From Acutalibacteraceae bacterium (GTDB lineage Bacteria > Bacillota > Clostridia > Oscillospirales > Acutalibacteraceae), in the NCBI GenBank assembly GCA_045605125.1, contig JAZUPK010000036.1, positions 4,945 to 68,944 on the forward strand: DNA of 64,000 nt, read 5' to 3'. This document shows positions 16,275-62,185 of this stretch, piece by piece. Position 1 is the first letter of the stretch, and the number at the start of each line of letters is the position of its first letter. The position numbers were made by a program, and so were the translations under genes. The notes under the pieces are model-generated. The model was not told the DNA's origin. It saw only the letters and a program-made list of their open reading frames with translations, and did no database searches.

Positions 16275-18443
16275 TTATTTAGTTTTTACATACTTGTAAG
16301 TAGACCAACCGGAATAATACTTTGTTTTATCAACAGTCTTATAGGTTCTTATTCTTACGTAGTACGTCTTTTTAGCACTAAGACTCTTCAAAGTATATTT
16401 CGTTGTCTTATAACTCGAAATGGTTTTTGTTTTAGCCTTTGTAAACTTCTTGGAAGTTGAATACTGAATTTGGTATCCACTAACTTGCGAGGATTTCTTT
16501 TTAATTGCTACTGTGATACTCTTCTTACCGGCAGTGAGTTTTGATACCGTTGTTTTCGCAGGGTTAATCTTAAAGGTCAGCGTTTTGGTACCGCTATACT
16601 TGCCCTTCATTTCAATCTTCACCTTGTAGGTTCCGACATTTTTTCTGCCCTTTGCGTAACTTACAGTGTAATCCGTATTCTGCTTAAGCACCTTTCCTGA
16701 ATAATCCTTAACTGTTACACTAGGAGTTTTTATCTTACCATTATATGTGTATGTTGTTGTAGACAACTTTAAAGATTTAACGTACTTAATAGTACTCTTA
16801 CTTGCAACCCTTCCACACACAGTACATTTCTTAACTACACTACCATTTTTAGAAAGCGTTGCTTTTGCTGTGGTTGTTTTGTAAGAGTGTGTGGTAAGTT
16901 TCGCTATGGTCGAAGTTTTTGTGCTTTTGCATACAGAACAAGTATACGTCCTAATACCTGTTGCCTTGCAGGTTGCATCTTTGGTTACTTTACCTGAATC
17001 GTACTTGTGGGTTATGGAGCGTGTTGCACCGCATACGTTACATATTGTATCACAATTGTTGCTGTAAGTATGGGTAGTAAGTTTTGCAATCGTTTCAGTT
17101 TTAATCCCCTTACATACGGAGCAGGTGTACGTTTTTACGCCTGTCGCCTTGCAGGTAGCCGCCTTGGTTACTTGGCCGGAATCGTAGTTGTGATTCAAAA
17201 CCTCACGAGTCTCACCACAGACGTTGCAAGTTGCATCACAAACGTTGGAATAAACATGAGATTCCTCACAACTGCTATAGTGCCACATTGCATTCAACAG
17301 TGGTTCATTGCTTTCCGCGATTACAATATAATTCTTAGCATCTTCCGAACCAGAATAATAAACATCAGTCAAAGCTGCACACTCATAGAACGCCGCTTCG
17401 CCAATACTTGTTACACTTACTGGAATGTTGATGTTTTCAAGTAATGGACAAATAAATGCTCCCGAGCCAATAGATTCCACACCATAAGGGATTACAATAT
17501 TTTTCAATGGAGTCCAACAAAACATTAAATCGTTAATATTTTTAATTCCGGAGCCTAAGGTAATTTCTCCAAGACTGGAATACCAAAACGCTCCTCGGCC
17601 TAAGCTTGTTACACTATCAGGGATGGTTATGCTTGTGATGTTTGTGCCCAAAAATGCCTCTTCACCGATTGCTTCAACTGAACCGGGGATGTTTATCTCC
17701 ATTAATCCATCATCATATCTAAAGGCTGCAGTACCAATTGTTTTTACACCGTTTGGAATAACAACTTTTTTGATAGTATAGCACTTATCGAACGCATAAG
17801 CCCCTATAACTTCAACCCCATCTGGAACAGTATATAAAGTTCCGCTATTGGAGTCAAGATACAGAATCAATTCTTTCTTGTTTTTACTAAACACAACGCC
17901 ATCTTCAAAAATAAAATAGGAATTATCTGCGCTAATGTTTATTTTCTCCAATTTTACATTGTTGCCAAACGCTACAATCATATCAGAAGAAGATACATTT
18001 TTGCCAAATGTCAATTCCTTAATAGGAGAATCCGTAAGGCCTGTTTCTCCTACTTCGGGTATATCGTTGGGACAAATAAGAGTTTCTAAAGCCTCGCATT
18101 CCGAAAAGGCAAATTTTCCAATGTTTTGGACACTACTGGGGAGCGTTACTTTTTTTAAGTCTTGATTAAAGGCAAACGCAAATTTTCCAATATATGTAAC
18201 ACCGTCTTCAATAACAATTTCGGTAATTCCCCTTCCCCACGGAGCTGTTACAAAGCCTCCTTCATCACCTACATTATAATCACCCATAGCGCCATTACCT
18301 GAAATGGTAAGAACTGTTCCATCAAGTCTCCATTCACAATCTCCGCTTATTCCACAAGTAGTGGACTCCGCAGAAACGGCCATACTCGGCAACACGCTCA
18401 ATAACATTGCTAAAGTGATAAATGTGATAAGAATCTTTTTCAT
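16275..18443 (-). CDS. secreted leucine-rich-repeat (BspA-like) surface protein with Cys-rich and Ig/FN3-like C-terminal repeats
   Basis: Signal peptide MKKILITFITLAMLLSVLPSMAVSA. Repeated IP.SV..IG..AF LRR units. Two 59-aa Cys-rich repeats. Lys/Thr-rich beta-repeat tail. Confidence 0.75.
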   Translation of the reverse strand: MKKILITFITLAMLLSVLPSMAVSAESTTCGISGDCEWRLDGTVLTISGNGAMGDYNVGDEGGFVTAPWGRGITEIVIEDGVTYIGKFAFAFNQDLKKVTLPSSVQNIGKFAFSECEALETLICPNDIPEVGETGLTDSPIKELTFGKNVSSSDMIVAFGNNVKLEKINISADNSYFIFEDGVVFSKNKKELILYLDSNSGTLYTVPDGVEVIGAYAFDKCYTIKKVVIPNGVKTIGTAAFRYDDGLMEINIPGSVEAIGEEAFLGTNITSITIPDSVTSLGRGAFWYSSLGEITLGSGIKNINDLMFCWTPLKNIVIPYGVESIGSGAFICPLLENINIPVSVTSIGEAAFYECAALTDVYYSGSEDAKNYIVIAESNEPLLNAMWHYSSCEESHVYSNVCDATCNVCGETREVLNHNYDSGQVTKAATCKATGVKTYTCSVCKGIKTETIAKLTTHTYSNNCDTICNVCGATRSITHKYDSGKVTKDATCKATGIRTYTCSVCKSTKTSTIAKLTTHSYKTTTAKATLSKNGSVVKKCTVCGRVASKSTIKYVKSLKLSTTTYTYNGKIKTPSVTVKDYSGKVLKQNTDYTVSYAKGRKNVGTYKVKIEMKGKYSGTKTLTFKINPAKTTVSKLTAGKKSITVAIKKKSSQVSGYQIQYSTSKKFTKAKTKTISSYKTTKYTLKSLSAKKTYYVRIRTYKTVDKTKYYSGWSTYKYVKTK
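16885..17240 (-). repeat. tandem ~177-bp coding repeat (two Cys-rich modules) inside the LRR gene
   Basis: CDATCNVCGETREVLNHNYDSGQVTKAATCKATGVKTYTCSVCKGIKTETIAKLTTHTY is followed by CDTICNVCGATRSITHKYDSGKVTKDATCKATGIRTYTCSVCKSTKTSTIAKLTTHSY. Confidence 0.8.
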
Positions 18444-24717: not shown

Positions 24718-24799
24718 AATAATTTGCTCCTTTGTGTAAGTGTATTAAGCGGTTATATTTATTATATCAACTTTTAATCTAAAATTCAATTATTCATTA

Positions 24800-24842
24800 A
24801 AAAGAATAGCACCCGACTTTATTTTCTCAAAAGTCAGGTGCT
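24800..24842 (-). terminator. intrinsic terminator after four-helix-bundle gene A
   Basis: AGCACCCGACTTT (24808-20) pairs with AAAGTCAGGTGCT (24830-42), with one mismatch. On the - strand it is followed by ATTCTTTTT. Confidence 0.7.
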
Positions 24843-24845
24843 AAT

Positions 24846-25193
24846 TTATTTTGATTTAGCAGTGTTGATAGATGATATAAGCATTACTCTTATACTTGTG
24901 CAAACGGTATCAAGTTGTTTATAAGTAATTTCATCTATATAATTTGTTTTATACAAAAGTTCAAGCCAATAACCTGTTTCATTCGACTCTTTAAGAGCAA
25001 TTTGTAGTTTAGAAATAAAATCTGCTTTCCCGTGCGCATATTGTGCTTCGCGTATATTCGCCCCTATTGAAGTTCCACTCCTACCAATTTGGTTAGAAAT
25101 AATATTTTCTTTTTTCAGTTTTAATTCTTTAACTAAATTTATAATAGAAACCGCAAACTCCAAAGACAAATTTCTCAACTTGCTTTCTGACAT
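24846..25193 (-). CDS. four-helix-bundle protein (23S rRNA intervening-sequence protein / Avd-like family), copy A
   Basis: About 115 aa. Family block RSGTSIGANIREAQYA and YWLELL. ATG at 25193 lies 6 nt after GAGGTG and aligns with the copy B start. The ORF-track start at 25223 would include the predicted -10. Confidence 0.75.
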   Translation of the reverse strand: MSESKLRNLSLEFAVSIINLVKELKLKKENIISNQIGRSGTSIGANIREAQYAHGKADFISKLQIALKESNETGYWLELLYKTNYIDEITYKQLDTVCTSIRVMLISSINTAKSK

Positions 25194-25211
25194 CATAATC
25201 ACCTCTTGCAC

Positions 25212-25240
25212 ATTATATAACATTTATCTGTGAAGTGCAA
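25212..25240 (-). promoter_or_regulatory. sigma-A-type promoter candidate for four-helix-bundle gene A
   Basis: On the - strand: TTGCAC (25240-25235), 17-nt spacer, TATAAT (25217-25212). TATAAT-N-AGAGGTGAT-ATG layout shared with copy B (6 vs 7 nt after TATAAT). Confidence 0.45.
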
Positions 25241-25401
25241 GGCTTCCCCTTGCGTGAAATTATGCTACGCACAATGAAGTATTTGCTTCGCAAAAGTGAA
25301 GTAAAGTGTGCCACTCACGCCCACAGGCGCTTCATGATGTACAACATCGCTTCACGCACCAAAGGTGTACTTATCGTGCCGTAAGGCACACTTAGTTCAC
25401 C
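25230..25401 (+). other. ornate repeat-plus-hairpin array A (candidate structured RNA or ssDNA element, function unknown)
   Basis: GTGAAGT-like 7-9-mers (25230, 25254, 25274, 25296) alternate with short GC-rich hairpins. CTTCAT/CTTCAC/ACTTA complements (25330, 25350, 25370, 25390) alternate with hairpins that include GTGCC[GTAA]GGCAC. Colinear with array B on the + strand. Confidence 0.7.
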
Positions 25402-25403
25402 AA

Positions 25404-25437
25404 ATAAAAAAGACACTCTTTCGAGTGTCTTTTTTAT
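25404..25437. terminator. bidirectional intrinsic terminator (3' of tRNA-Lys on -, 3' of array A on +)
   Basis: AGACACTC-TTTC-GAGTGTCT stem-loop. A-run on one side and T-run on the other. Confidence 0.85.
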
Positions 25438-25438
25438 T

Positions 25439-25514
25439 TGGTGATCCATCGGGGATTCGAACCCCGGACACCTTGATTAAAAGTCAAGTGCTCTACCGTC
25501 TGAGCTAATGAATC
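25439..25514 (-). tRNA. tRNA-Lys (anticodon UUU), CCA encoded
   Basis: The reverse complement folds as a cloverleaf. Acceptor GATTCAT/ATGGATC. D arm GCTC..GAGC. Anticodon arm CTTGA-CTTTTAA-TCAAG. T arm CGGGG-TTCGAAT-CCCCG. 76 nt long. Confidence 0.9.
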
Positions 25515-25532
25515 ATTTTTGACAGCCTTAAT

Positions 25533-25561
25533 ATTATATCAACTACTAATGCGATTGTCAA
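25533..25561 (-). promoter_or_regulatory. consensus sigma-A promoter for tRNA-Lys
   Basis: On the - strand: TTGACA (25561-25556), 17-nt spacer, TATAAT (25538-25533). About 18 nt upstream of the mature tRNA 5' end. Confidence 0.7.
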
Positions 25562-25570
25562 TAAAAATTT

Positions 25571-25846
25571 TTAATTTTTATAAATTTTTACAAAAACAAT
25601 CAATATTACCGCTATTTGCAGTAAAATAATTACAGGCAAACCTAGCATAAATTTAGTATGCTTTGTTTTGTGGCGTATTATGCGCATTGTAATATACATC
25701 GCCACCGCCCCGCCTATTACTGACAATAAAAGCAAGTTTTTTTCACTTATTCTTTGTAAATCTTTTTTTGCGGCAAATTTATCGTAAATGCAAATTATCA
25801 CACTAACTACGCTAATTGCCGCTAAATAATATAAAAAATATTCCAT
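25571..25846 (-). CDS. DUF1294 family small membrane protein
   Basis: 91 aa. Pattern YDKFAAKKDLQRISEKNLLLLSVIGGAVAMYITMRIIRHKTKHTKF is typical of DUF1294. Confidence 0.7.
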   Translation of the reverse strand: MEYFLYYLAAISVVSVIICIYDKFAAKKDLQRISEKNLLLLSVIGGAVAMYITMRIIRHKTKHTKFMLGLPVIILLQIAVILIVFVKIYKN

Positions 25847-25884
25847 TTTTAACTCTCTTTTTGTTTTTTACTATTTTACCACTA

Positions 25885-26577
25885 TTACACAACTTTTTCA
25901 ATTTGTTTTTTAAGCTTGTTTATTATCCGCTTTTCAAGGCGCGATATATACGATTGTGAGATTCCTAACGTGTCGGCAACCTCCTTTTGAGTATATTCAT
26001 CGTAGCCGTTCATACCAAAGCGCATTTCCATAATCTGCTTTTCGCGTACGGGAAGTCCCTTTACAAAACGGTTTAAAAGTTGTTTTTCATCCTCCTGCTC
26101 TACACCTCTGCCGATTTCATCACCATCGCTACCCAAAACATCAGATAATAACAACTCGTTTCCGTCCCAATCAACATTCAAAGGCTCATCAATAGAAATT
26201 TCGTGCCTTTGAGAAGAGCTTTTGCGCAAAAACATTAAAATTTCATTCTCAATACAGCGCGAAGCGTAGGTTGCAAGCTTTATATTTCTATCGGGACAAA
26301 AAGTATTTACCGCTTTTATAAGACCTATTGTACCTATAGAAATTAAATCTTCAATATTAGTATTAGTGCCTTCAAACTTGCGTGCAATATACACTACAAG
26401 CCTTAAATTATGTACTATTAAAGAATCGCGAGAAGATTTATCGTTTTTATTTACTAGCTCTACTTCTTCGTTGTATGTAAGCGGAGCGGGCAAAATTTCG
26501 GGCCCGTTAATATAAAAGGTTGGCTTTATTACGCCTAACTTTACAAGAATTTTATTAAAAATATTTTTTAGTGTCAT
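25885..26577 (-). CDS. sigE: sporulation sigma factor SigE (pro-sigma-E)
   Basis: [38 protein letters not shown] and [18 protein letters not shown] match SigE rather than SigK. Lies directly downstream of spoIIGA. ATG at 26577 is 5 nt after AAGGTGA. Confidence 0.85.
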
Positions 26578-26582
26578 ATCAA

Positions 26583-27413
26583 TCACCTTAAAATTTTTGG
26601 ATTTATAATTGCATTATAGTCTTCATTAAGCGGTACTTTAGATACCGCCAAAATAGGTTTTTTAAGAGGAATTTTTTTATCATCACATTCCACCAAAGCC
26701 TCTTCACATCGAAAACCGTCTAGACTACTGTACCCCGAAACAGTATTACAGGGCAAAAGCCTATAAAGGTGAGCGTGCTTATTATTTTCTAAAGAATCTA
26801 CATCACCAAATAAATACGCCACCTTAGATTTATCTGCTATAATAATTTCACTATCCGAAAAAGCATCTTCTAACGAATTTCCGGTATCAGCAATAGCTAA
26901 AAGTATAATCTCCCTACCATTTGCAGTAACCGAAATCTCGCACCGCGAAGCTAACGGACTGCTTTTTTTGAAGATTTTATAGCATAAAGTAAAAACAATA
27001 TACCCCACGGTGGAAAAAATAACCAACATAAGCGGCGAAATATTTAAATAAACTACCGAATTATTTATAACCATACCGTAAGGCGTGAATACCGTCCACA
27101 AAGCGAACATTATTCCGCCGTATCCACAACTGACAACTAAAAACACCACTACGTTTTTTAAATATTTTTTTACACCCAAAAACTTATAACAAACAAACGT
27201 TAAGAGAAAAGCAATGGAAGTTTTATATAAAAATTCTACTATTATTTTTTGTTGCGGTAAATATATGTAAATACTTGAAATACCACCTAAAAGTGCTGCT
27301 AAAACGGTCCTATAGGTTGTAGTCTTTTCTCCCGTGATTTTTGCTGTAGCCAAAAGCAAAAAGTAATCAACCAAGGTGTTTAGGAATATTAGCACATCCA
27401 TATAAACAATCAA
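26583..27413 (-). CDS. spoIIGA: sigma-E processing peptidase SpoIIGA
   Basis: Polytopic N-terminal half. DTGN aspartic protease motif ([11 protein letters not shown]). TTG start 5 nt after AAGGTGA. N-terminus [13 protein letters not shown] resembles Bacillus SpoIIGA. Confidence 0.85.
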
Positions 27414-27429
27414 TTAAATCACCTTATAT

Positions 27430-27463
27430 ATTATACCTTAAAGGGACTAAAAATTTTGTCGCT
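27430..27463 (-). promoter_or_regulatory. candidate spoIIG promoter with Spo0A-box-like element at extended spacing
   Basis: On the - strand: TATAAT (27435-27430). GCGACA, inside AGCGACA (resembles the 0A box TTCGACA), lies 21 nt upstream at 27462-27457. This recalls the long-spacer B. subtilis spoIIG promoter. Confidence 0.35.
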
Positions 27464-27510
27464 TATAGTTGCTGCAAATTAAAAAAGTGTACAAAAAAAT
27501 ACCGCTCAAA

Positions 27511-27712
27511 GGCGTTGTACCCGTAAGGATACAACGCCAGTTTTATTCGCCAAGGCGAGTTTTATTGCTACGCAGTGATATTTGAACTTCGTTCAAGTGA
27601 TATTCGCTTCGCGAGTTTAAGGGCGAATAAAATAACACTTAAACCGCAAGGTTTCAATATCACTATTGCCGAAAGGCAATAATATCACTCCAACTTTAGG
27701 AGGAATATAACT
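27511..27712 (+). other. ornate repeat-plus-hairpin array B (candidate structured RNA or ssDNA element, function unknown)
   Basis: 5' hairpin at 27511-38. Then AGTTTTATT x2 and AGTGATATT x2, each followed by a short hairpin (two capped CTTCG). Then GCAA- and GAAA-capped hairpins alternate with AATATCACT x2, the exact reverse complement of AGTGATATT. AATATAACT (27704-12) pairs 8/9 with AGTTTTATT. Confidence 0.75.
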
Positions 27713-27740
27713 TGAAAGTCAGTCTGTTTTTATGTATAAT
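27712..27740 (+). promoter_or_regulatory. sigma-A-type promoter candidate for four-helix-bundle gene B
   Basis: TTGAAA (27712-17), 17-nt spacer, TATAAT (27735-40). Then AGAGGTGAT and ATG at 27760. Confidence 0.5.
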
Positions 27741-27759
27741 AAATTTAGAGGTGATAACT

Positions 27760-28110
27760 ATGGCTGATAGTATTTTAAGAGATAAAGCAAAAGAATTTGC
27801 AAAGAAAGTAGTTTTTCTTTGCCGTGATATGAAAGCAAATCATAAAGAATCGGTTTTAATAAATCAACTACTTCGCTCATCAACCTCGATAGGAGCAAAT
27901 TTGCACGAGGCTCAATACGCTCAAGGAACTAAAGATTTTATTTCAAAACTTGAAATAGCCCAAAAAGAGTGCTACGAAACTGAATATTGGTTAGAACTTC
28001 TTTTTGAGACGGGTTGTATGACCGAAGAAATATACAAAGATATTCAAAACGAATGTGGTTCGATTCGCAGAATGTTGATTTCTTCGCTTAAAACTATAAA
28101 ATCAAAATAA
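27760..28110 (+). CDS. four-helix-bundle protein (23S rRNA intervening-sequence protein / Avd-like family), copy B
   Basis: 116 aa from ATG 27760, which lies 6 nt after GAGGTG. RSSTSIGANLHEAQYA and YWLELL. C-terminus MLISSLKTIKSK parallels copy A. An in-frame TTG at 27712 with an AGGAGG RBS is an alternative start. Confidence 0.75.
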   Translation: MADSILRDKAKEFAKKVVFLCRDMKANHKESVLINQLLRSSTSIGANLHEAQYAQGTKDFISKLEIAQKECYETEYWLELLFETGCMTEEIYKDIQNECGSIRRMLISSLKTIKSK

Positions 28111-28123
28111 GGAGCTTTATATT

Positions 28124-28501
28124 ATGAGTCAAAGAAAAAGATTAGAATATTTGATAATCACTTCTTGTGTATTGTTGTCAGGATTTATCATTTATGGTTT
28201 TGTGGGAAGTATTCAGCCACTAATTAACGATAGTAAAGTCGCTTCGTTTTTTGCATTTGGTGCTTTGGGTGGCTTGGGTTTTAGTCTTATTTTATCAACC
28301 ATAATTTTAAGTTCAAGATTTTTTCAAAAAAGAAGTTTAATATTTAAAATAATTGCGGCTGTTCTTTGGCCTATTACATTTGCTTGTTGTTTTTATGTTG
28401 GTGTTTTTATGTATATCCCCTATGGAATATACAATGTTGTAATGTTGATTAGAAAAGAGCCTCAAGTTGTAGAAAGTTCCGATGACGATTCAAATGAATG
28501 A
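28124..28501 (+). CDS. hypothetical four-TM membrane protein
   Basis: AAGGAG RBS 13 nt after the stop of gene B. Four hydrophobic helices and an acidic C-terminus. No family recognised. Confidence 0.5.
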   Translation: MSQRKRLEYLIITSCVLLSGFIIYGFVGSIQPLINDSKVASFFAFGALGGLGFSLILSTIILSSRFFQKRSLIFKIIAAVLWPITFACCFYVGVFMYIPYGIYNVVMLIRKEPQVVESSDDDSNE

Positions 28502-28610
28502 AAAATACACAATTTTTTATTTAGCTTAGATTAAAGGGTTTTAGGTTCTCCTAAAATGCGGAAAATGTGATATACATTTTCCCTGCTTGTTACGGTATGA
28601 GACAAAAGTA

Positions 28611-28645
28611 AAAGATGCACGAATTTTTTCGTGCATCTTTTTTTT
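28611..28645. terminator. bidirectional intrinsic terminator
   Basis: GATGCACGAA-TTTT-TTCGTGCATC stem-loop, followed by T8 and preceded by an A-run. Sits between convergent genes. Confidence 0.8.
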
Positions 28646-28697
28646 ACTGTCCTTTAGAGTACGACTCAAATTGAGCGGTATTTTAAGTATAATTTTG

Positions 28698-61325: not shown

Positions 61326-61353
61326 AAAGACTCAGGGTGACCTGAGTCTTTTT
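61326..61353. terminator. bidirectional intrinsic terminator
   Basis: AAAGACTCAGG-GTGA-CCTGAGTCTTT stem-loop between convergent genes. Confidence 0.8.
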
Positions 61354-62185
61354 ACTTTAGATATTTCTCTATATTCGCGTTTATTTCTTTTACCAAATTA
61401 TGTTCGTTTATTTGGTGTTCAACTGCCGCGTAAAAGCTTTCGGGCAAGCGGCTTAAATTAGGAGTTATAAAAATTTTAGGGCTATTTTGCTTTACCGATT
61501 TTAAAAACTCCAAATACTCTAAATTAAGCGTGCAAAAATCCCTAAACACATCGGTTAAGGCGTTTCTTTTTACAGGTTTTCTAATAGAAGAAAGCCTATA
61601 ATTTATATTATTAAATTTGTTACAAGCATCGGTTAAAAATTCTTTCGAATAACCGTTTAAAGCATTATAAAAAGCATTGTTGTTCAAAAGCAAGGATGGG
61701 TGCATACCGCCTATAATACTCCAAAAATACATTTGGTTATAAAAACAGCTAAAACCGTTGTTCAAAAAAGGTAAAAAGTAGTTAGTTATAAGCACATTAC
61801 CTACCATATTTTTAACCCCGAAAATCGCATTCGTATAACGGCTTTCATATATGTAATGAAAGAGGGATTGCTGCATCACAGGATAACCCGAAAATGCTTC
61901 AAATTTTATACGCTCGAGCAAATTTATAAACCCCGAATTTACACGCAAAAATTCCTGATAATAAGCGAGTGTCCGCTCCCCCTTTTTAAAGTTTTCATTA
62001 AAGTTTATAAACTTTTTAAAATACTCCCTTAATTCCTCCTTAAAATAATCTTCTAAAACCGCTGTAGTACTAGGCACCGATTTTAAAAACGAATTTATAT
62101 GCTCGGCTATATTTTCACTCCAAAAAATTGCAGCTTTTCGCATAAGTGATGAAGTCCTTTCATTACCGCAATTTATAAAATTCAT
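61352..62185 (-). CDS. hypothetical protein, possibly DUF2935-like (two FW...H helical repeats)
   Basis: Two internal repeats, each with an FW....H pattern (IFWSENIAEHINSF and YFWSIIGGMHPSL). The assignment is tentative. Confidence 0.4.
   Translation of the reverse strand: MNFINCGNERTSSLMRKAAIFWSENIAEHINSFLKSVPSTTAVLEDYFKEELREYFKKFINFNENFKKGERTLAYYQEFLRVNSGFINLLERIKFEAFSGYPVMQQSLFHYIYESRYTNAIFGVKNMVGNVLITNYFLPFLNNGFSCFYNQMYFWSIIGGMHPSLLLNNNAFYNALNGYSKEFLTDACNKFNNINYRLSSIRKPVKRNALTDVFRDFCTLNLEYLEFLKSVKQNSPKIFITPNLSRLPESFYAAVEHQINEHNLVKEINANIEKYLK

Follow-up and report, generated by a model that had tools for sequence, protein, structure and literature searches.

The window analysed here is a stretch of 64,000 nucleotides of contig JAZUPK010000036.1 from an Acutalibacteraceae bacterium (assembly GCA_045605125.1). 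Within it, two cassettes that each carry a gene for a four-helix-bundle (4HB) protein lie in inverted orientation, with tRNA-Lys(UUU), a DUF1294 gene, a sigma-70 family gene at the sigE position and the SpoIIGA gene between them, and cysK and the gene for an HtrA-like protease outside them. The features of the two cassettes are as follows.

~24800-25398, minus strand: element A (A-type, about 600 nt), with array, promoter, 4HB gene and terminator hairpin
24806-24841, minus strand: hairpin 3' of gene A, likely a terminator
24846-25193, minus strand: 4HB gene A, 115 aa
25212-25240, minus strand: promoter A, TTGCAC-17-TATAAT
25225-25398, minus strand: array A, short hairpins with linkers between them
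25397-25444: perfect 22-bp palindrome, bidirectional terminator
25439-25514, minus strand: tRNA-Lys(UUU), the landmark for insertion of element A
27496-27509: left arm of the host palindrome (a terminator) that element B splits, AAAATACCGCTCAA; it forms a perfect inverted repeat with 28671-28684
27510-28670, plus strand: element B (B-type, 1161 nt), at the apex of a terminator hairpin downstream of the htrA-like gene
27511-27538, plus strand: terminal hairpin H0, GGCGTTGTACCC-GTAA-GGATACAACGCC, which holds the left terminal inverted repeat
27539-27712, plus strand: array B, four units of AGTKNTAT(T) linker plus hairpin, the centre GGCGAATAAAAT, and four units of AATANMACT linker plus hairpin
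27712-27740, plus strand: promoter B, TTGAAA-17-TATAAT
27760-28110, plus strand: 4HB gene B, 116 aa
28124-28501, plus strand: cargo gene for a four-TM protein, 125 aa
28560-28582, plus strand: tail hairpin with one linker motif inside it (GTGATAT)
28610-28641: element-borne bidirectional terminator with a 14-bp stem, found on both strands
28646-28670, plus strand: right terminal inverted repeat, ending ACTGTCCTTTAGAGTACGACTCAAA, which in reverse complement can be aligned to the left end and H0
28671-28684: right arm of the host palindrome that element B splits, TTGAGCGGTATTTT

A previous sequence-only reading of this DNA had taken the two proteins for paralogs belonging to the family known from 23S rRNA intervening sequences (IVSs), and both points are borne out. 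The proteins share the blocks xSxTSIGANxxEAQYA and YWLELL, are 53% identical, and score 92 bits (A) and 97 bits (B) against PF05635 (cut-off 33.8 bits) and 104.6 and 107.8 bits, respectively, against TIGR02436 (cut-off 24 bits). The best structural match, given for gene B, is 2RLD (E 1.6e-29), an entry with five chains; the S23p/IVS protein is a homopentameric ring (PMC4990558). Both promoters were found downstream of their arrays. Promoter B matches the consensus at 11 of 12 positions, overlaps the last linker with its -35 and is kept in relatives; promoter A, read from the sequence and found in the same layout in relatives, has its -35 at 25240-25235, within the final array hairpin and linker, and its -10 at 25217-25212 (minus strand). 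The near-consensus layout first described for these two strong promoters stands, but the distance from TATAAT to AGAGGTGAT is 5 nt in A and 6 nt in B rather than 6 and 7. The tRNA-Lys gene was called by both ARAGORN and Rfam; rRNA was not found in the window, and no other Rfam family reached its gathering score there. Among the 41 window ORFs of at least 230 aa, none contains a reverse transcriptase (RT), integrase or transposase domain (within 21.7-31.5 kb the scan also covered shorter ORFs), in agreement with the earlier statement that neither an rRNA nor a diversity-generating retroelement (DGR) context is present.

Arrays A and B, one beside each 4HB gene as originally noticed, are the sole dense clusters of hairpins in the window. 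Arrays of this kind are built from short hairpins and linkers of 7-9 nt, and the linker sequence is specific to the subfamily: array A, read on the plus strand, has GTGAAG/GTGAAA/ATGAAG/GTGAAG and then CTTCAT/CTTCAC, whereas the B-type linkers are those listed above. Array B folds much more stably than shuffled sequences (z of -6.9). The arrays, whose kind had not been recognised, belong in an extended and divergent form to Rfam Gut-1 (RF01706), a motif described as a non-coding RNA candidate (PMC2864571). Array A matches Gut-1 at 25228-25307 (plus strand, 39.7 bits) and array B at 27538-27608 (plus strand, 38.1 bits) and 27627-27713 (minus strand, 30.1 bits), all sub-threshold; related arrays score 51.9-59.2 bits against the gathering score of 50, and the flanks in the original Gut-1 alignment have the same two-halved layout. 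In our alignment A1, 97% of cells are paired and compensatory changes occur at 19 pairs, compared with 11.7±1.3 after shuffling and no more than 10 with the partners slid; loops on the sense strand are UNCG or GNRA. Covariation is also seen in the helix that the first linker forms with the centre, which is concordant in 107 of 110 cases (T/A 76, A/T 24, C/G 7). Covariation of specific linker pairs is weak, so pairing of one half of the array with the other is putative and the linkers could instead be double-stranded DNA sites for a protein.

Comparison of the interval from cysK through spoIIG to htrA with relatives, a check proposed in the sequence-only reading, gave empty sites for both cassettes in one syntenic relative (L161, about 88% identical from cysK to htrA). 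Where the window has the 1161 nt of element B, the L161 palindrome is intact with contiguous arms (AAAAAATACCGCTCAAtTTGAGCGGTATTTT; as a palindrome, ...ACCGCTCAAtTTGAGCGGT...), and 48 nt replaces window positions 24734-25429 (696 nt including element A). The 4HB gene is absent from L161 and also from L162. Both cassettes are thus insertions; the orthologous filled and empty sites come from a single pair, and precise loss in L161 is a less probable alternative. No target-site duplication was found.

In element B, H0 has 3-4 covarying variants among relatives, and one of its halves recurs inverted at the right end of the element; relatives retain the right terminal inverted repeat at their own right ends and also have an equivalent terminator hairpin just inside that end. 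The terminator of element B itself probably now ends transcription of the htrA-like gene. The tail (28532-28670, including the tail hairpin) is conserved in relatives with other cargo. The four-TM gene starts 13 nt past gene B, as reported, and has no match in Pfam or NCBIfam; it had rightly been called unrecognised, but it is cargo inside element B rather than a neighbour that follows it. Relatives L027, L030 and L033 carry the same four-TM cargo, and other copies have different genes in that place. In A-type elements the conserved block runs from window position 25398 to about 24850, and to 24800 in L081, L082, L093 and L104; the hairpin 3' of gene A is conserved with the element in a sub-lineage of four loci. 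The 22-bp palindrome fills the gap between tRNA-Lys and array A, one of its arms overlapping the final 6 nt of the tRNA gene. The window and L161 have its A and T tracts in common but differ in its GC core, and the A-type palindrome could belong to either the host or the element.

Relatives in genome contigs number at least 523 for the B-type and at least 312 for the A-type (Oscillospirales); a MAG has several of them, they often lie where a contig ends, and close homologues form at least 7995 clusters at 90% identity. Conservation stops at the array on one side and, on the other, at the stop codon or the tail; the flanking sequences are all different. About 30 B-type copies lie between locus-specific palindrome arms of 10-20 nt, an A-run to one side and a T-run to the other, and these copies have imperfect terminal inverted repeats and varied cargo. 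Fifty-four of 69 A-type copies lie downstream of a co-oriented tRNA gene, with 16 isotypes represented; the gap that separates tRNA gene and array at such loci is taken up exactly by a perfect palindrome (median 18 bp). Among the cargo within the element boundaries are an ion channel, a SAM methyltransferase, AraC+Cass2, GNAT, HAD, NUDIX and His-phosphatase proteins. Elements in different species are about 75-88% identical, a value similar to the genome background and therefore no demonstration of recent movement.

The association between gene and array runs one way. An array adjoins the 4HB gene in 67 of 69 A-type cases and in all 71 B-type cases with enough upstream sequence, but when the arrays themselves were scanned for, a 4HB gene accompanied only about 8 of 123. 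Solo arrays, about 90% of the total, are MITE-like, 290-400 nt long and have the same ends as gene-bearing copies; at least 14 solo copies of this length have the same end types and lie within palindrome arms or after a tRNA gene. The sequence-only reading had counted arrays occurring apart from the genes against its idea of a gene-plus-array module. Such arrays do occur, but the idea is not overturned: the array with its terminal repeats becomes the basic unit, and the 4HB gene is found in a minority of longer copies. That the gene and array are part of a small inserted selfish module, as that reading suggested, is borne out by the empty sites in L161 and the hundreds of unrelated contexts.

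The interpretation that we favour, with a probability of roughly 0.7, is that the cassettes were inserted independently and represent two subfamilies of a single family of small, chromosome-borne mobile elements in gut Oscillospirales. These elements are widespread in gut Clostridia and have been undescribed so far. The data above show the insertion itself, the element boundaries, the targets, the size of the family, the array structure and the one-way link from gene to array. The basic element is a unit of 290-400 nt with imperfect terminal inverted repeats, of which the left forms the hairpin H0, an array of about four plus four linkers (7-9 nt, direct and then inverted), each followed by a short stable hairpin, and a terminator near the right end; it is the Gut-1 RNA motif in its complete form, and the cassette family thus explains that orphan motif. 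A minority of copies, A and B included, have in addition a consensus promoter abutting the last linker and an S23p/Avd-like 4HB gene, and longer copies often one cargo gene, the four-TM protein in B. Integration takes place at structure-defined sites of intrinsic terminators, at the hairpin apex for the B-type and immediately 3' of the palindrome after a tRNA gene for the A-type. Since the elements bring their own terminators, host genes stay insulated. We suppose that the array works single-stranded, either as RNA (the sense strand of the gene) or as single-stranded DNA, and that a pentameric 4HB protein may bind its repeated linkers; such binding would autoregulate the protein's own promoter, and the protein could serve the spread or upkeep of solo arrays in trans. 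The elements themselves contain no transposase, recombinase or reverse transcriptase, and we know of no catalytic activity for the 4HB fold; catalysis might come from a host or unlinked enzyme, or from a novel activity of the 4HB protein.

The lack of an encoded enzyme is also what one would expect of non-autonomous, PATE- or MITE-like passengers of an unlinked HUH/Y1 single-strand transposase (IS200/IS605 or RAYT type), with the 4HB gene merely their commonest cargo. Subterminal hairpins at both ends, the absent target duplication, insertion at single-stranded hairpin apices and the excess of short over long copies all fit such an origin, which we consider a possible but rather unlikely one. 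In gene-bearing copies the first gene is always that for the 4HB protein, with a fixed junction to the array, whereas the remaining genes differ from copy to copy and, in this sample, none occurred without it; in addition, the element ends are inverted repeats, which those of IS200/IS605 are not known to be. It is less likely still that the arrays are free-standing Gut-1 small RNA genes, or REP-like terminator or mRNA-stabilising repeats, and that the 4HB genes are unrelated selfish genes which share a preference for terminator regions but have no functional link to the arrays. The predominance of arrays without a 4HB gene, the status of Gut-1 as an RNA candidate, the hairpin covariation and the RNA-type tetraloops would suit this, but nearly all 4HB genes have an array fused to the promoter at a fixed distance with the last linker over the -35, solo and 4HB-bearing copies have terminal repeats and insertion sites in common, each subfamily has its own linker sequence, and short-repeat arrays also surround the 4HB genes of eight distant taxa (below).

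Avd, the RT accessory protein, is homologous to the 4HB family (PMC10053308), so the 4HB proteins might be orphan Avd subunits that act with an RT encoded elsewhere, by a DGR-like mechanism or by retrotransposition, the array being an RNA template or primer. The resemblance of the arrays to structured RNA, and the TGGTGG at the end of some A-type palindromes, complementary to the tRNA CCACCA end, would be in keeping with this. We nevertheless judge it very unlikely: the window has no RT among the ORFs scanned, nor a TR/VR pair or adenine-mutagenesis pattern, the inverted-repeat ends are precise and tails and 5' truncations are absent, hundreds of copies per clade lack a linked RT, and no relatives were found in viral contigs. 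The inverted placement of the cassettes on either side of the operon could, finally, mean that they are regulatory modules selected to flank or control spoIIGA-sigE or tRNA-Lys. To this we give almost no credence, as it is contradicted by L161, which has the same operon and neither cassette, by the hundreds of unrelated contexts in which relatives of both cassettes occur, and by the terminators with which each cassette is insulated. The spoIIG operon is a bystander, and its bracketing, which had been pointed out, is a coincidence of two terminator-targeted insertions from two subfamilies and not design.

If our preferred reading of A and B as mobile elements is correct, the cassettes offer a testable handle on the long-unexplained 23S rRNA IVS proteins. 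An IVS is located in a 23S rRNA helix with complementary ends on either side of it, and a role of its ORF in mobility was proposed in 1993 but never tested (PMC4990558). A link to short repeats runs through the family: distant 4HB genes are bracketed by inverted arrays of tandem repeats of about 7 nt in all eight taxa of our set (Nostoc, Euhalothece, Planktothrix, Bernardetia, Chondrinema, Treponema, Chlorohelix and Monoglobus); in the clearest case 35 nt show 100% complementarity and 358 nt separate the two arms.

Genes A and B lie in two small elements with terminal inverted repeats that integrate at structure-defined points of terminators. Both genes are real open reading frames (ORFs), and the features that surround them are as follows.

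24846-25193, - strand: gene A, encoding protein A (115 aa)
25240-25212, - strand: promoter A, near-consensus TTGCAC-17-TATAAT
25225-25398: array A (short hairpins and linkers), directly upstream of promoter A
Between genes A and B: tRNA-Lys(UUU), a DUF1294 gene, a sigma-70 family gene at the sigE position, and spoIIGA
27511-27538: H0, the terminal hairpin that forms the first part of array B
27539-27712: array B, directly upstream of promoter B
27712-27740, + strand: promoter B, near-consensus TTGAAA-17-TATAAT
27760-28110, + strand: gene B, encoding protein B (116 aa)
Outside the gene A-gene B interval: cysK and an HtrA-like protease gene

This confirms the sequence-only reading in its description of two genes with promoters and arrays, apart from the promoter spacing, which was off by one. 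Its assignment of the two proteins to the four-helix-bundle (4HB) family also stands, since both exceed the curated cut-offs: proteins A and B score 92 and 97 bits against PF05635 (profile cut-off 33.8) and 104.6 and 107.8 bits against TIGR02436 'four helix bundle protein' (cut-off 24). They are 53% identical to each other, and the R-x3-S-x3-N-x2-E portion of the conserved family motif GxxRxxxSxxxNxxE (PMC3936711) is present in both (RSGTSIGANIRE in A and RSSTSIGANLHE in B), with the leading G off its consensus position in both. Structure 2RLD, whose entry holds five chains, is a match at E 1.6e-29, and S23p of Xanthomonas is a homopentamer (PMC4990558).

The comparison of filled and empty sites is made on one pair, the window and L161, a contig of a related Acutalibacteraceae MAG that is syntenic with it, 87-89% identical from cysK to beyond htrA, and without both cassettes; the idea that the cassettes had been inserted is thus borne out over the cysK-htrA interval. 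At site B, the htrA-like gene of L161 is closely followed by an intact palindromic terminator, AAAAAATACCGCTCAAtTTGAGCGGTATTTT. The corresponding window sequence is ...ACCGCTCAA/AGGCGTTG...(1161 nt)...GACTCAAA/TTGAGCGGTATTTT, so that element B (27510-28670) lies exactly at the apex of the terminator hairpin, between perfect 14-nt arms. Terminators are found at both ends of element B (H0 followed by AGUUUUAUU, and a 14-bp bidirectional terminator at 28610-28641), and the split host terminator is therefore functionally replaced. At site A, 696 nt of the window (24734-25429) correspond to 48 nt in L161, and these 48 nt consist only of the tRNA-Lys terminator and the cysK ribosome-binding region. 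No 4HB protein is encoded by L161 or by a second relative, L162, which is rearranged and cut at the tRNA and so uninformative as an empty-site reference. The spoIIG operon is therefore a bystander. No convincing target-site duplication was seen at the junctions, either between filled and empty sites or at the element ends of relatives.

Several smaller differences accompany these sites. The tRNA-Lys terminator (25397-25444) has the same A/T tracts as in L161 and a wholly different GC core (GACACTC/GAGTGTC in the window vs CCGGCC/GGGTCGG in L161); its 3' arm reaches as far as TTTGGTGA, a stretch that pairs with the tRNA 3' end, and similar TGGTGG extensions follow tRNA-Tyr in L085, L091, L097 and L104. 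About 66 nt separate element A from resumed L161 homology (24734-24799), a stretch that is not common to other A-type loci and holds a good cysK promoter, TTGAAT-17-TATAAT, at 24789-24761. The gap between the DUF1294 gene and sigE, 10 nt in the window, contains in L161 an extra gene-sized insertion of about 669 nt with an opposite-strand ORF.

At least 523 relatives of protein B are present in genome_contigs, the best 80 of which are 81-96% identical to it. Their hosts are many Acutalibacteraceae, Oscillospiraceae and 'Eubacteriales' MAGs from ruminant and human gut; one MAG has several copies, which are often located at contig ends. For protein A, genome_contigs contains at least 312 relatives. 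In the protein database, close homologues form at least 7995 clusters. Viral contigs yielded no relatives, and PADLOC gave no match to an anti-phage defence system. The copies diverge from one another about as much as the genome background does, a point against the mechanism proposed below. In the B-type cassettes, conservation extends from H0 or from the array (window 27508/27538) as far as the stop codon of the 4HB gene, and in a subset it resumes after a variable gene, in a tail equivalent to window 28532-28670. The upstream flanks all differ. About 30 B-type loci are bounded by locus-specific inverted arms of 10-20 nt, and these arms (an A-run with a GC-rich stem at one end, the stem with a T-run at the other) are the two halves of one terminator. 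The two ends of an element are imperfect inverted repeats, which fall into three or four types; left and right read ACTTCTCATAAGGA in one example and GTTGTACCCGTAAGGA vs GTCGTACTCTAAAGGA in another. The left repeat is half of H0, and close to its right end the element has an internal terminator hairpin. Gene-bearing copies in this sample always have the 4HB gene in first place, and their contents vary with length.

Contents of gene-bearing elements by length
724-810 nt: array and 4HB gene only
About 980 nt: plus an 86-aa zinc-ribbon protein
1098-1241 nt: plus small proteins, including the window's four-TM protein; also a NUDIX protein
About 1340 nt: plus a SAM methyltransferase
About 1435 nt: plus a HAD hydrolase
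About 1476 nt: plus an ion channel
About 1710 nt: plus an AraC-Cass2/GyrI-like regulator

An AraC regulator with a Cass2 'integron-associated effector binding' domain is a recurrent cargo (L032 3485-4393; L047).

The A-type cassettes are conserved from window 25398 to about 24850, and to 24800 in four loci. An array is present in 67 of the 69 A-type loci with enough upstream sequence, and in 54 of the 69 a co-oriented tRNA gene ends within 420 nt. Sixteen tRNA isotypes are represented (Tyr 18, Arg 7, Leu 6, Ser 5, and others), and a perfect palindrome, with a median of 18 bp, occupies exactly the space between the 3' end of the tRNA and the array's first base. Palindromes after different tRNAs (Ser, Arg, Gly, Met, Val, Leu, Lys) were seen to have a common inner core, TTTGTC(T)-ACC-(A)GACAAA, within differing outer stems (L101, L103, L105, L107-L109, L113, L114, L119-L121, L124, L126, L130, L131); this common-core palindrome may be the host's, the element's or a footprint. 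Two or three 4HB genes occur within 1-2 kb at some loci (L099 3001-4653, L092, L111, L147, L150, L037), some of them fragments and some only about 50% identical to each other, which suggests that elements accumulate at the same sites.

Arrays are also found on their own. A scan of genome_contigs with a pattern of three B-type linkers alone gave at least 123 matches in at least 119 stretches. A 4HB gene follows about 8 of the 123 matches listed, and 22 more are too near a contig end to tell. Of the others that were inspected, the majority are true arrays and a few are chance-like (for example L174, L194, L210). At least 14 such solo copies could be delimited; they are 290-400 nt long, have H0 and right-end types as in the gene-bearing copies, and are located within a pair of terminator arms or immediately behind a tRNA and its terminator. 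One candidate for a 1739-nt element with other genes and no 4HB gene (L277) turned out to be a solo copy about 330 nt long beside a convergent MFS gene. Since the 4HB gene is nearly always accompanied by an array and the array is usually without the gene, the association is one-way: the expectation that 4HB genes have an adjacent array is upheld in the A-type loci (67/69), and the reverse coupling fails, with a 4HB gene at only about 8 of the 123 matches listed. The pattern is one of short non-autonomous copies outnumbering longer protein-coding ones.

Arrays A and B are the only hairpin clusters of this type in the 64 kb. In array B, H0 is followed by a 5' half of four 9-nt linkers (AGTTTTATT, AGTTTTATT, AGTGATATT and AGTGATATT), each with a short hairpin after it, then by the centre, GGCGAATAAAAT, and by a 3' half of four complementary linkers (AATAACACT, AATATCACT, AATATCACT and AATATAACT), again each with a hairpin; the last linker overlaps the -35 box of promoter B. 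Array A follows the same plan with another linker, reading GTGAAG, GTGAAA, ATGAAG and GTGAAG and then CTTCAT and CTTCAC on the + strand. We rejected the idea that the arrays are 5' UTRs because consensus promoters lie between array and gene. Nor are they mutually inverted as the genes are: array A(+) aligns with B(+) at a score of 45 (shuffles 24±5) and A(-) gives no match, although each array is itself a quasi-palindrome, so that this alignment leaves the strand unfixed.

At a relaxed threshold, the arrays match the Gut-1 family (RF01706; gathering score 50 bits) at three places, each spanning model positions 1-77.

25228-25307, + strand: 39.7 bits
27538-27608, + strand: 38.1 bits
27627-27713, - strand: 30.1 bits

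The window arrays thus fall below the gathering threshold of 50 bits (30.1-39.7); arrays of the same architecture elsewhere exceed it (L170 with 59.2 and 52.0, L182 with 54.3, L101 with 53.7 and L165 with 51.9 bits). Because the Gut-1 consensus is three hairpins parted by GUGAAAU (Rfam RF01706; Weinberg et al. 2010, PMC2864571), each array can be read as a Gut-1-like unit plus an inverted Gut-1-like unit. The flanks of the raw Gut-1 alignment of 2010 contain an unmodelled second inverted half, as in our arrays, and that alignment also includes tandem copies, one copy after a tRNA and terminator, and one inside a long inverted repeat (PMC2864571). Judged by scores and architecture, the arrays are members of Gut-1 at the family level, the window copies being divergent ones. 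Both have three hairpins, a repeated GUGAAAU-like linker and an occurrence in human or animal gut bacteria. Gut-1 as modelled is, however, a 77-nt orphan sRNA from metagenomes only, whereas here it makes up half of a 170-200-nt array within a 290-1800-nt element with terminal repeats and defined sites of insertion, some copies of which also carry genes; the window linkers also differ from those of Gut-1 (GTGAAGT in A, GTGATAT/GTTTTAT in B). Tandem half- or whole arrays occur at L122 2368-2900 (about 202-nt spacing), L087 2513-2790 and L217 1987-2190, and recall the 240-nt tandem Gut-1 copies of the 2010 alignment. In L018, L019, L065 and L181 a further hairpin module (for example CTCTTTTGGAATATCTCGTCTGCGACGAGGTATTCCAAAAGA) is nested in array hairpin loops, as though still smaller units had been inserted at the tips of hairpins.

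We examined the single-strand structure of the array in an alignment of 63 B-type arrays, using a model of six local hairpins and one 12-bp long-range helix in which the first linker and the 5' arm of hairpin 1 pair with the centre. Under this structure 97.0% of cells are paired, and compensatory double changes occur in 19 pairs; shuffled controls give 11.7±1.3, and sliding the partners gives no more than 10. Over all fetched arrays, the variable base of the first linker agrees with the centre base that it pairs with in 107 of 110 cases (T/A 76, A/T 24, C/G 7). A-type arrays have the same helix in four or more sequence versions (AAGTGTGCC/GGCACACTT and AAGCGTTCC/GGAACGCTT among them), and it competes with hairpin 1, so that two conformations are possible. 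Loops on the sense strand of the gene are often cUUCGg, cUACGg, cGUAAg, cGCAAg or cGAAAg, loop types that would favour RNA, with stable DNA mini-hairpins as the alternative. We did not adopt a rod model with fixed partners among the 5' and 3' linkers, since covariation specific to such pairs is weak. The linkers form a single conserved motif in both orientations, as expected of a putative binding site.

The protein homologue search yielded close relatives only, and more distant contexts were drawn from plasmid and chromid records. Eight distant 4HB genes found there, 32-48% identical to B (Nostoc, Euhalothece, Planktothrix, Bernardetia, Chondrinema, Treponema, Chlorohelix and Monoglobus), are all, 8 of 8, tightly bracketed by inverted arrays of tandem repeats of about 7 nt. 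The repeats are (TAATTCG)n in Nostoc (35 nt, 100% complementary, arms 358 nt apart), (GATTAGT)n in Bernardetia, (GAAAGYG)n in Treponema (arms 54-72 nt), ACCAGTG/TGGTCAC in Euhalothece and of AAGGATG type in Chlorohelix; those of Monoglobus are 24 nt long and 92% complementary. These genes sit inside operons, between hsdS and hsdR, drmD and MmeI, an RND adaptor and permease, or a helicase and methylase, and upstream of recF. Several of the host operons (among L282-L289) are defence operons, namely type I R-M hsdS-hsdR, DISARM drmD-MmeI and helicase-N6-methylase, in agreement with the report of 18 4HB genes inserted within cas loci or operons (PMC3936711). The bracketed layout matches that of intervening sequences (IVSs) in the literature, where an ORF lies in the loop of a long stem that is cut by RNase III, and where the protein is a homopentameric ring of unknown function for which a mobility role of the ORF, proposed in 1993, was never tested (PMC4990558). 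Literature searches on Gut-1, S23p, heptamer repeats and Avd outside diversity-generating retroelements (DGRs) gave no paper that links 4HB proteins with short-repeat arms or Gut-1.

How do these elements relate to known systems? Avd, the DGR accessory subunit, is a pentamer that acts on structured nucleic acid together with another enzyme. It is a four-helix bundle homologous to the 4HB family (PMC10053308), but unlike in a DGR, reverse transcriptase (RT), template or variable repeats and a target gene are absent among the ORFs of 21.7-31.5 kb and all 41 window ORFs of at least 230 aa, which are housekeeping or sporulation genes; a profile scan of those 41 likewise gave no integrase or transposase, and no long direct repeat pair was found around the cassettes. 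The 23S rRNA IVSs with S23p (Leptospira, Coxiella and others; PMC4990558) share with the elements the same protein family, a position at the tip of a stable hairpin, complementary ends, a sporadic distribution that looks horizontally transferred, and a host function that is kept (rRNA is functional in the IVS; termination is replaced here). Element B likewise splits the apex of a terminator palindrome, and when its ends are joined and folded the host arms are predicted to re-pair into a 14-bp stem enclosing H0, the terminal repeats not being predicted to pair with each other. An IVS, however, occupies an rRNA helix (helix 25 or 45 of the 23S rRNA gene), whereas the window has no rRNA (Rfam at gathering score returns tRNA only) and the elements sit at mRNA terminators or after those of tRNAs, with their own promoter, a hairpin-linker array and cargo genes. 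The cassettes are thus neither DGRs nor rRNA IVSs, whose defining contexts are absent on testing, as had been read from the sequence in both cases.

Similar partial likenesses hold for other mobile elements. REP/BIME-REPIN with RAYT and IS200/IS605 with PATE share short palindromic units in alternating orientation, intergenic and terminator-proximal positions, many short versus few protein-coding copies, and hairpin ends (here hairpins near both element ends) with no target duplication; they differ in that the associated protein here is a multi-copy 4HB protein, not an HUH/Y1 enzyme, and in the conserved linker between units, the inverted terminal repeats and insertion at apex or foot. Membership of the IS200/IS605 or PATE type would call for a Y1 (HUH) TnpA somewhere in the genome. 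MITEs have terminal inverted repeats, as here (ACTTCTCATAAGGA at both ends, for example), yet neither a duplication at the junctions nor a cognate transposase in the elements or the large window ORFs was found. Group IIC introns insert after terminators, and IS1397/ISKpn1 in REP loops; this structure-defined choice of terminator or palindrome loops or their 3' side is shared, but there is here no ribozyme, RT, DDE transposase or target duplication. Integron cassettes are likewise small single-gene mobile units with a folded, recombination-site-like hairpin and similar cargo (GNAT, methyltransferase, NUDIX, HAD, Cass2/GyrI-like), whereas our elements lack attC, attI and IntI (no integron integrase among the window ORFs scanned), have their own promoter and occur one by one, scattered over terminators. 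In some respects, then, the elements resemble MITEs/REPINs and IS200/IS605-type elements, whose defining enzymes or duplications the elements themselves lack; we class them as IVS-like selfish elements encoding S23p, and there is a substantial chance that they represent a new class of mobile element.

A mechanism can be proposed in which the array is the cis-acting part and would work as a folded single strand. The 4HB pentamer may bind the four full copies and one degenerate copy of the linker in each half (the putative binding site), may repress its own promoter, since the last site lies over the -35 box, and could act in trans on solo arrays. Strand cleavage and joining would then be carried out by an unlinked enzyme or by an activity new for the 4HB fold, no mobility enzyme having been identified in the elements or the window ORFs scanned. 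In read-through transcripts, host arms and terminal repeats may form a long IVS-like stem. Our broadest reading, to which we give a probability of roughly 30%, is that S23p/IVP 4HB proteins are dedicated repeat-binding factors, for mobility or maintenance, of phylum-spanning mobile elements that target structure. The pentameric ring would grip four or five tandem 7-9-nt single-strand repeats; elements at hairpin tips or feet (terminators here, rRNA helices in the classical IVS), heptamer-armed operon genes (cyanobacteria, Bacteroidota, spirochaetes, Chloroflexota) and Gut-1 arrays would be one system, and Avd a domesticated offshoot of it, which suggests an origin for that DGR subunit. Apart from this broadest reading, Gut-1, an orphan since 2010, gains a concrete identity as half of a mobile element's probable cis-acting array, not a free-standing sRNA gene, and the 23S rRNA IVS proteins, whose structures are solved and whose function is unknown, are tied to short tandem or inverted repeats across phyla. 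The insertion behaviour is new, with gene-carrying cassettes placed at a terminator apex or after tRNA terminators and replacing the split terminator, and it bears on annotation, on assembly breaks in gut MAGs and on the spread of accessory genes in Oscillospirales.

Among the other genes of the window, a 277-aa ORF at 61352-62185 has no Pfam match, and a 722-aa BspA-type leucine-rich-repeat protein is encoded at 16275-18443, amid housekeeping and sporulation genes.
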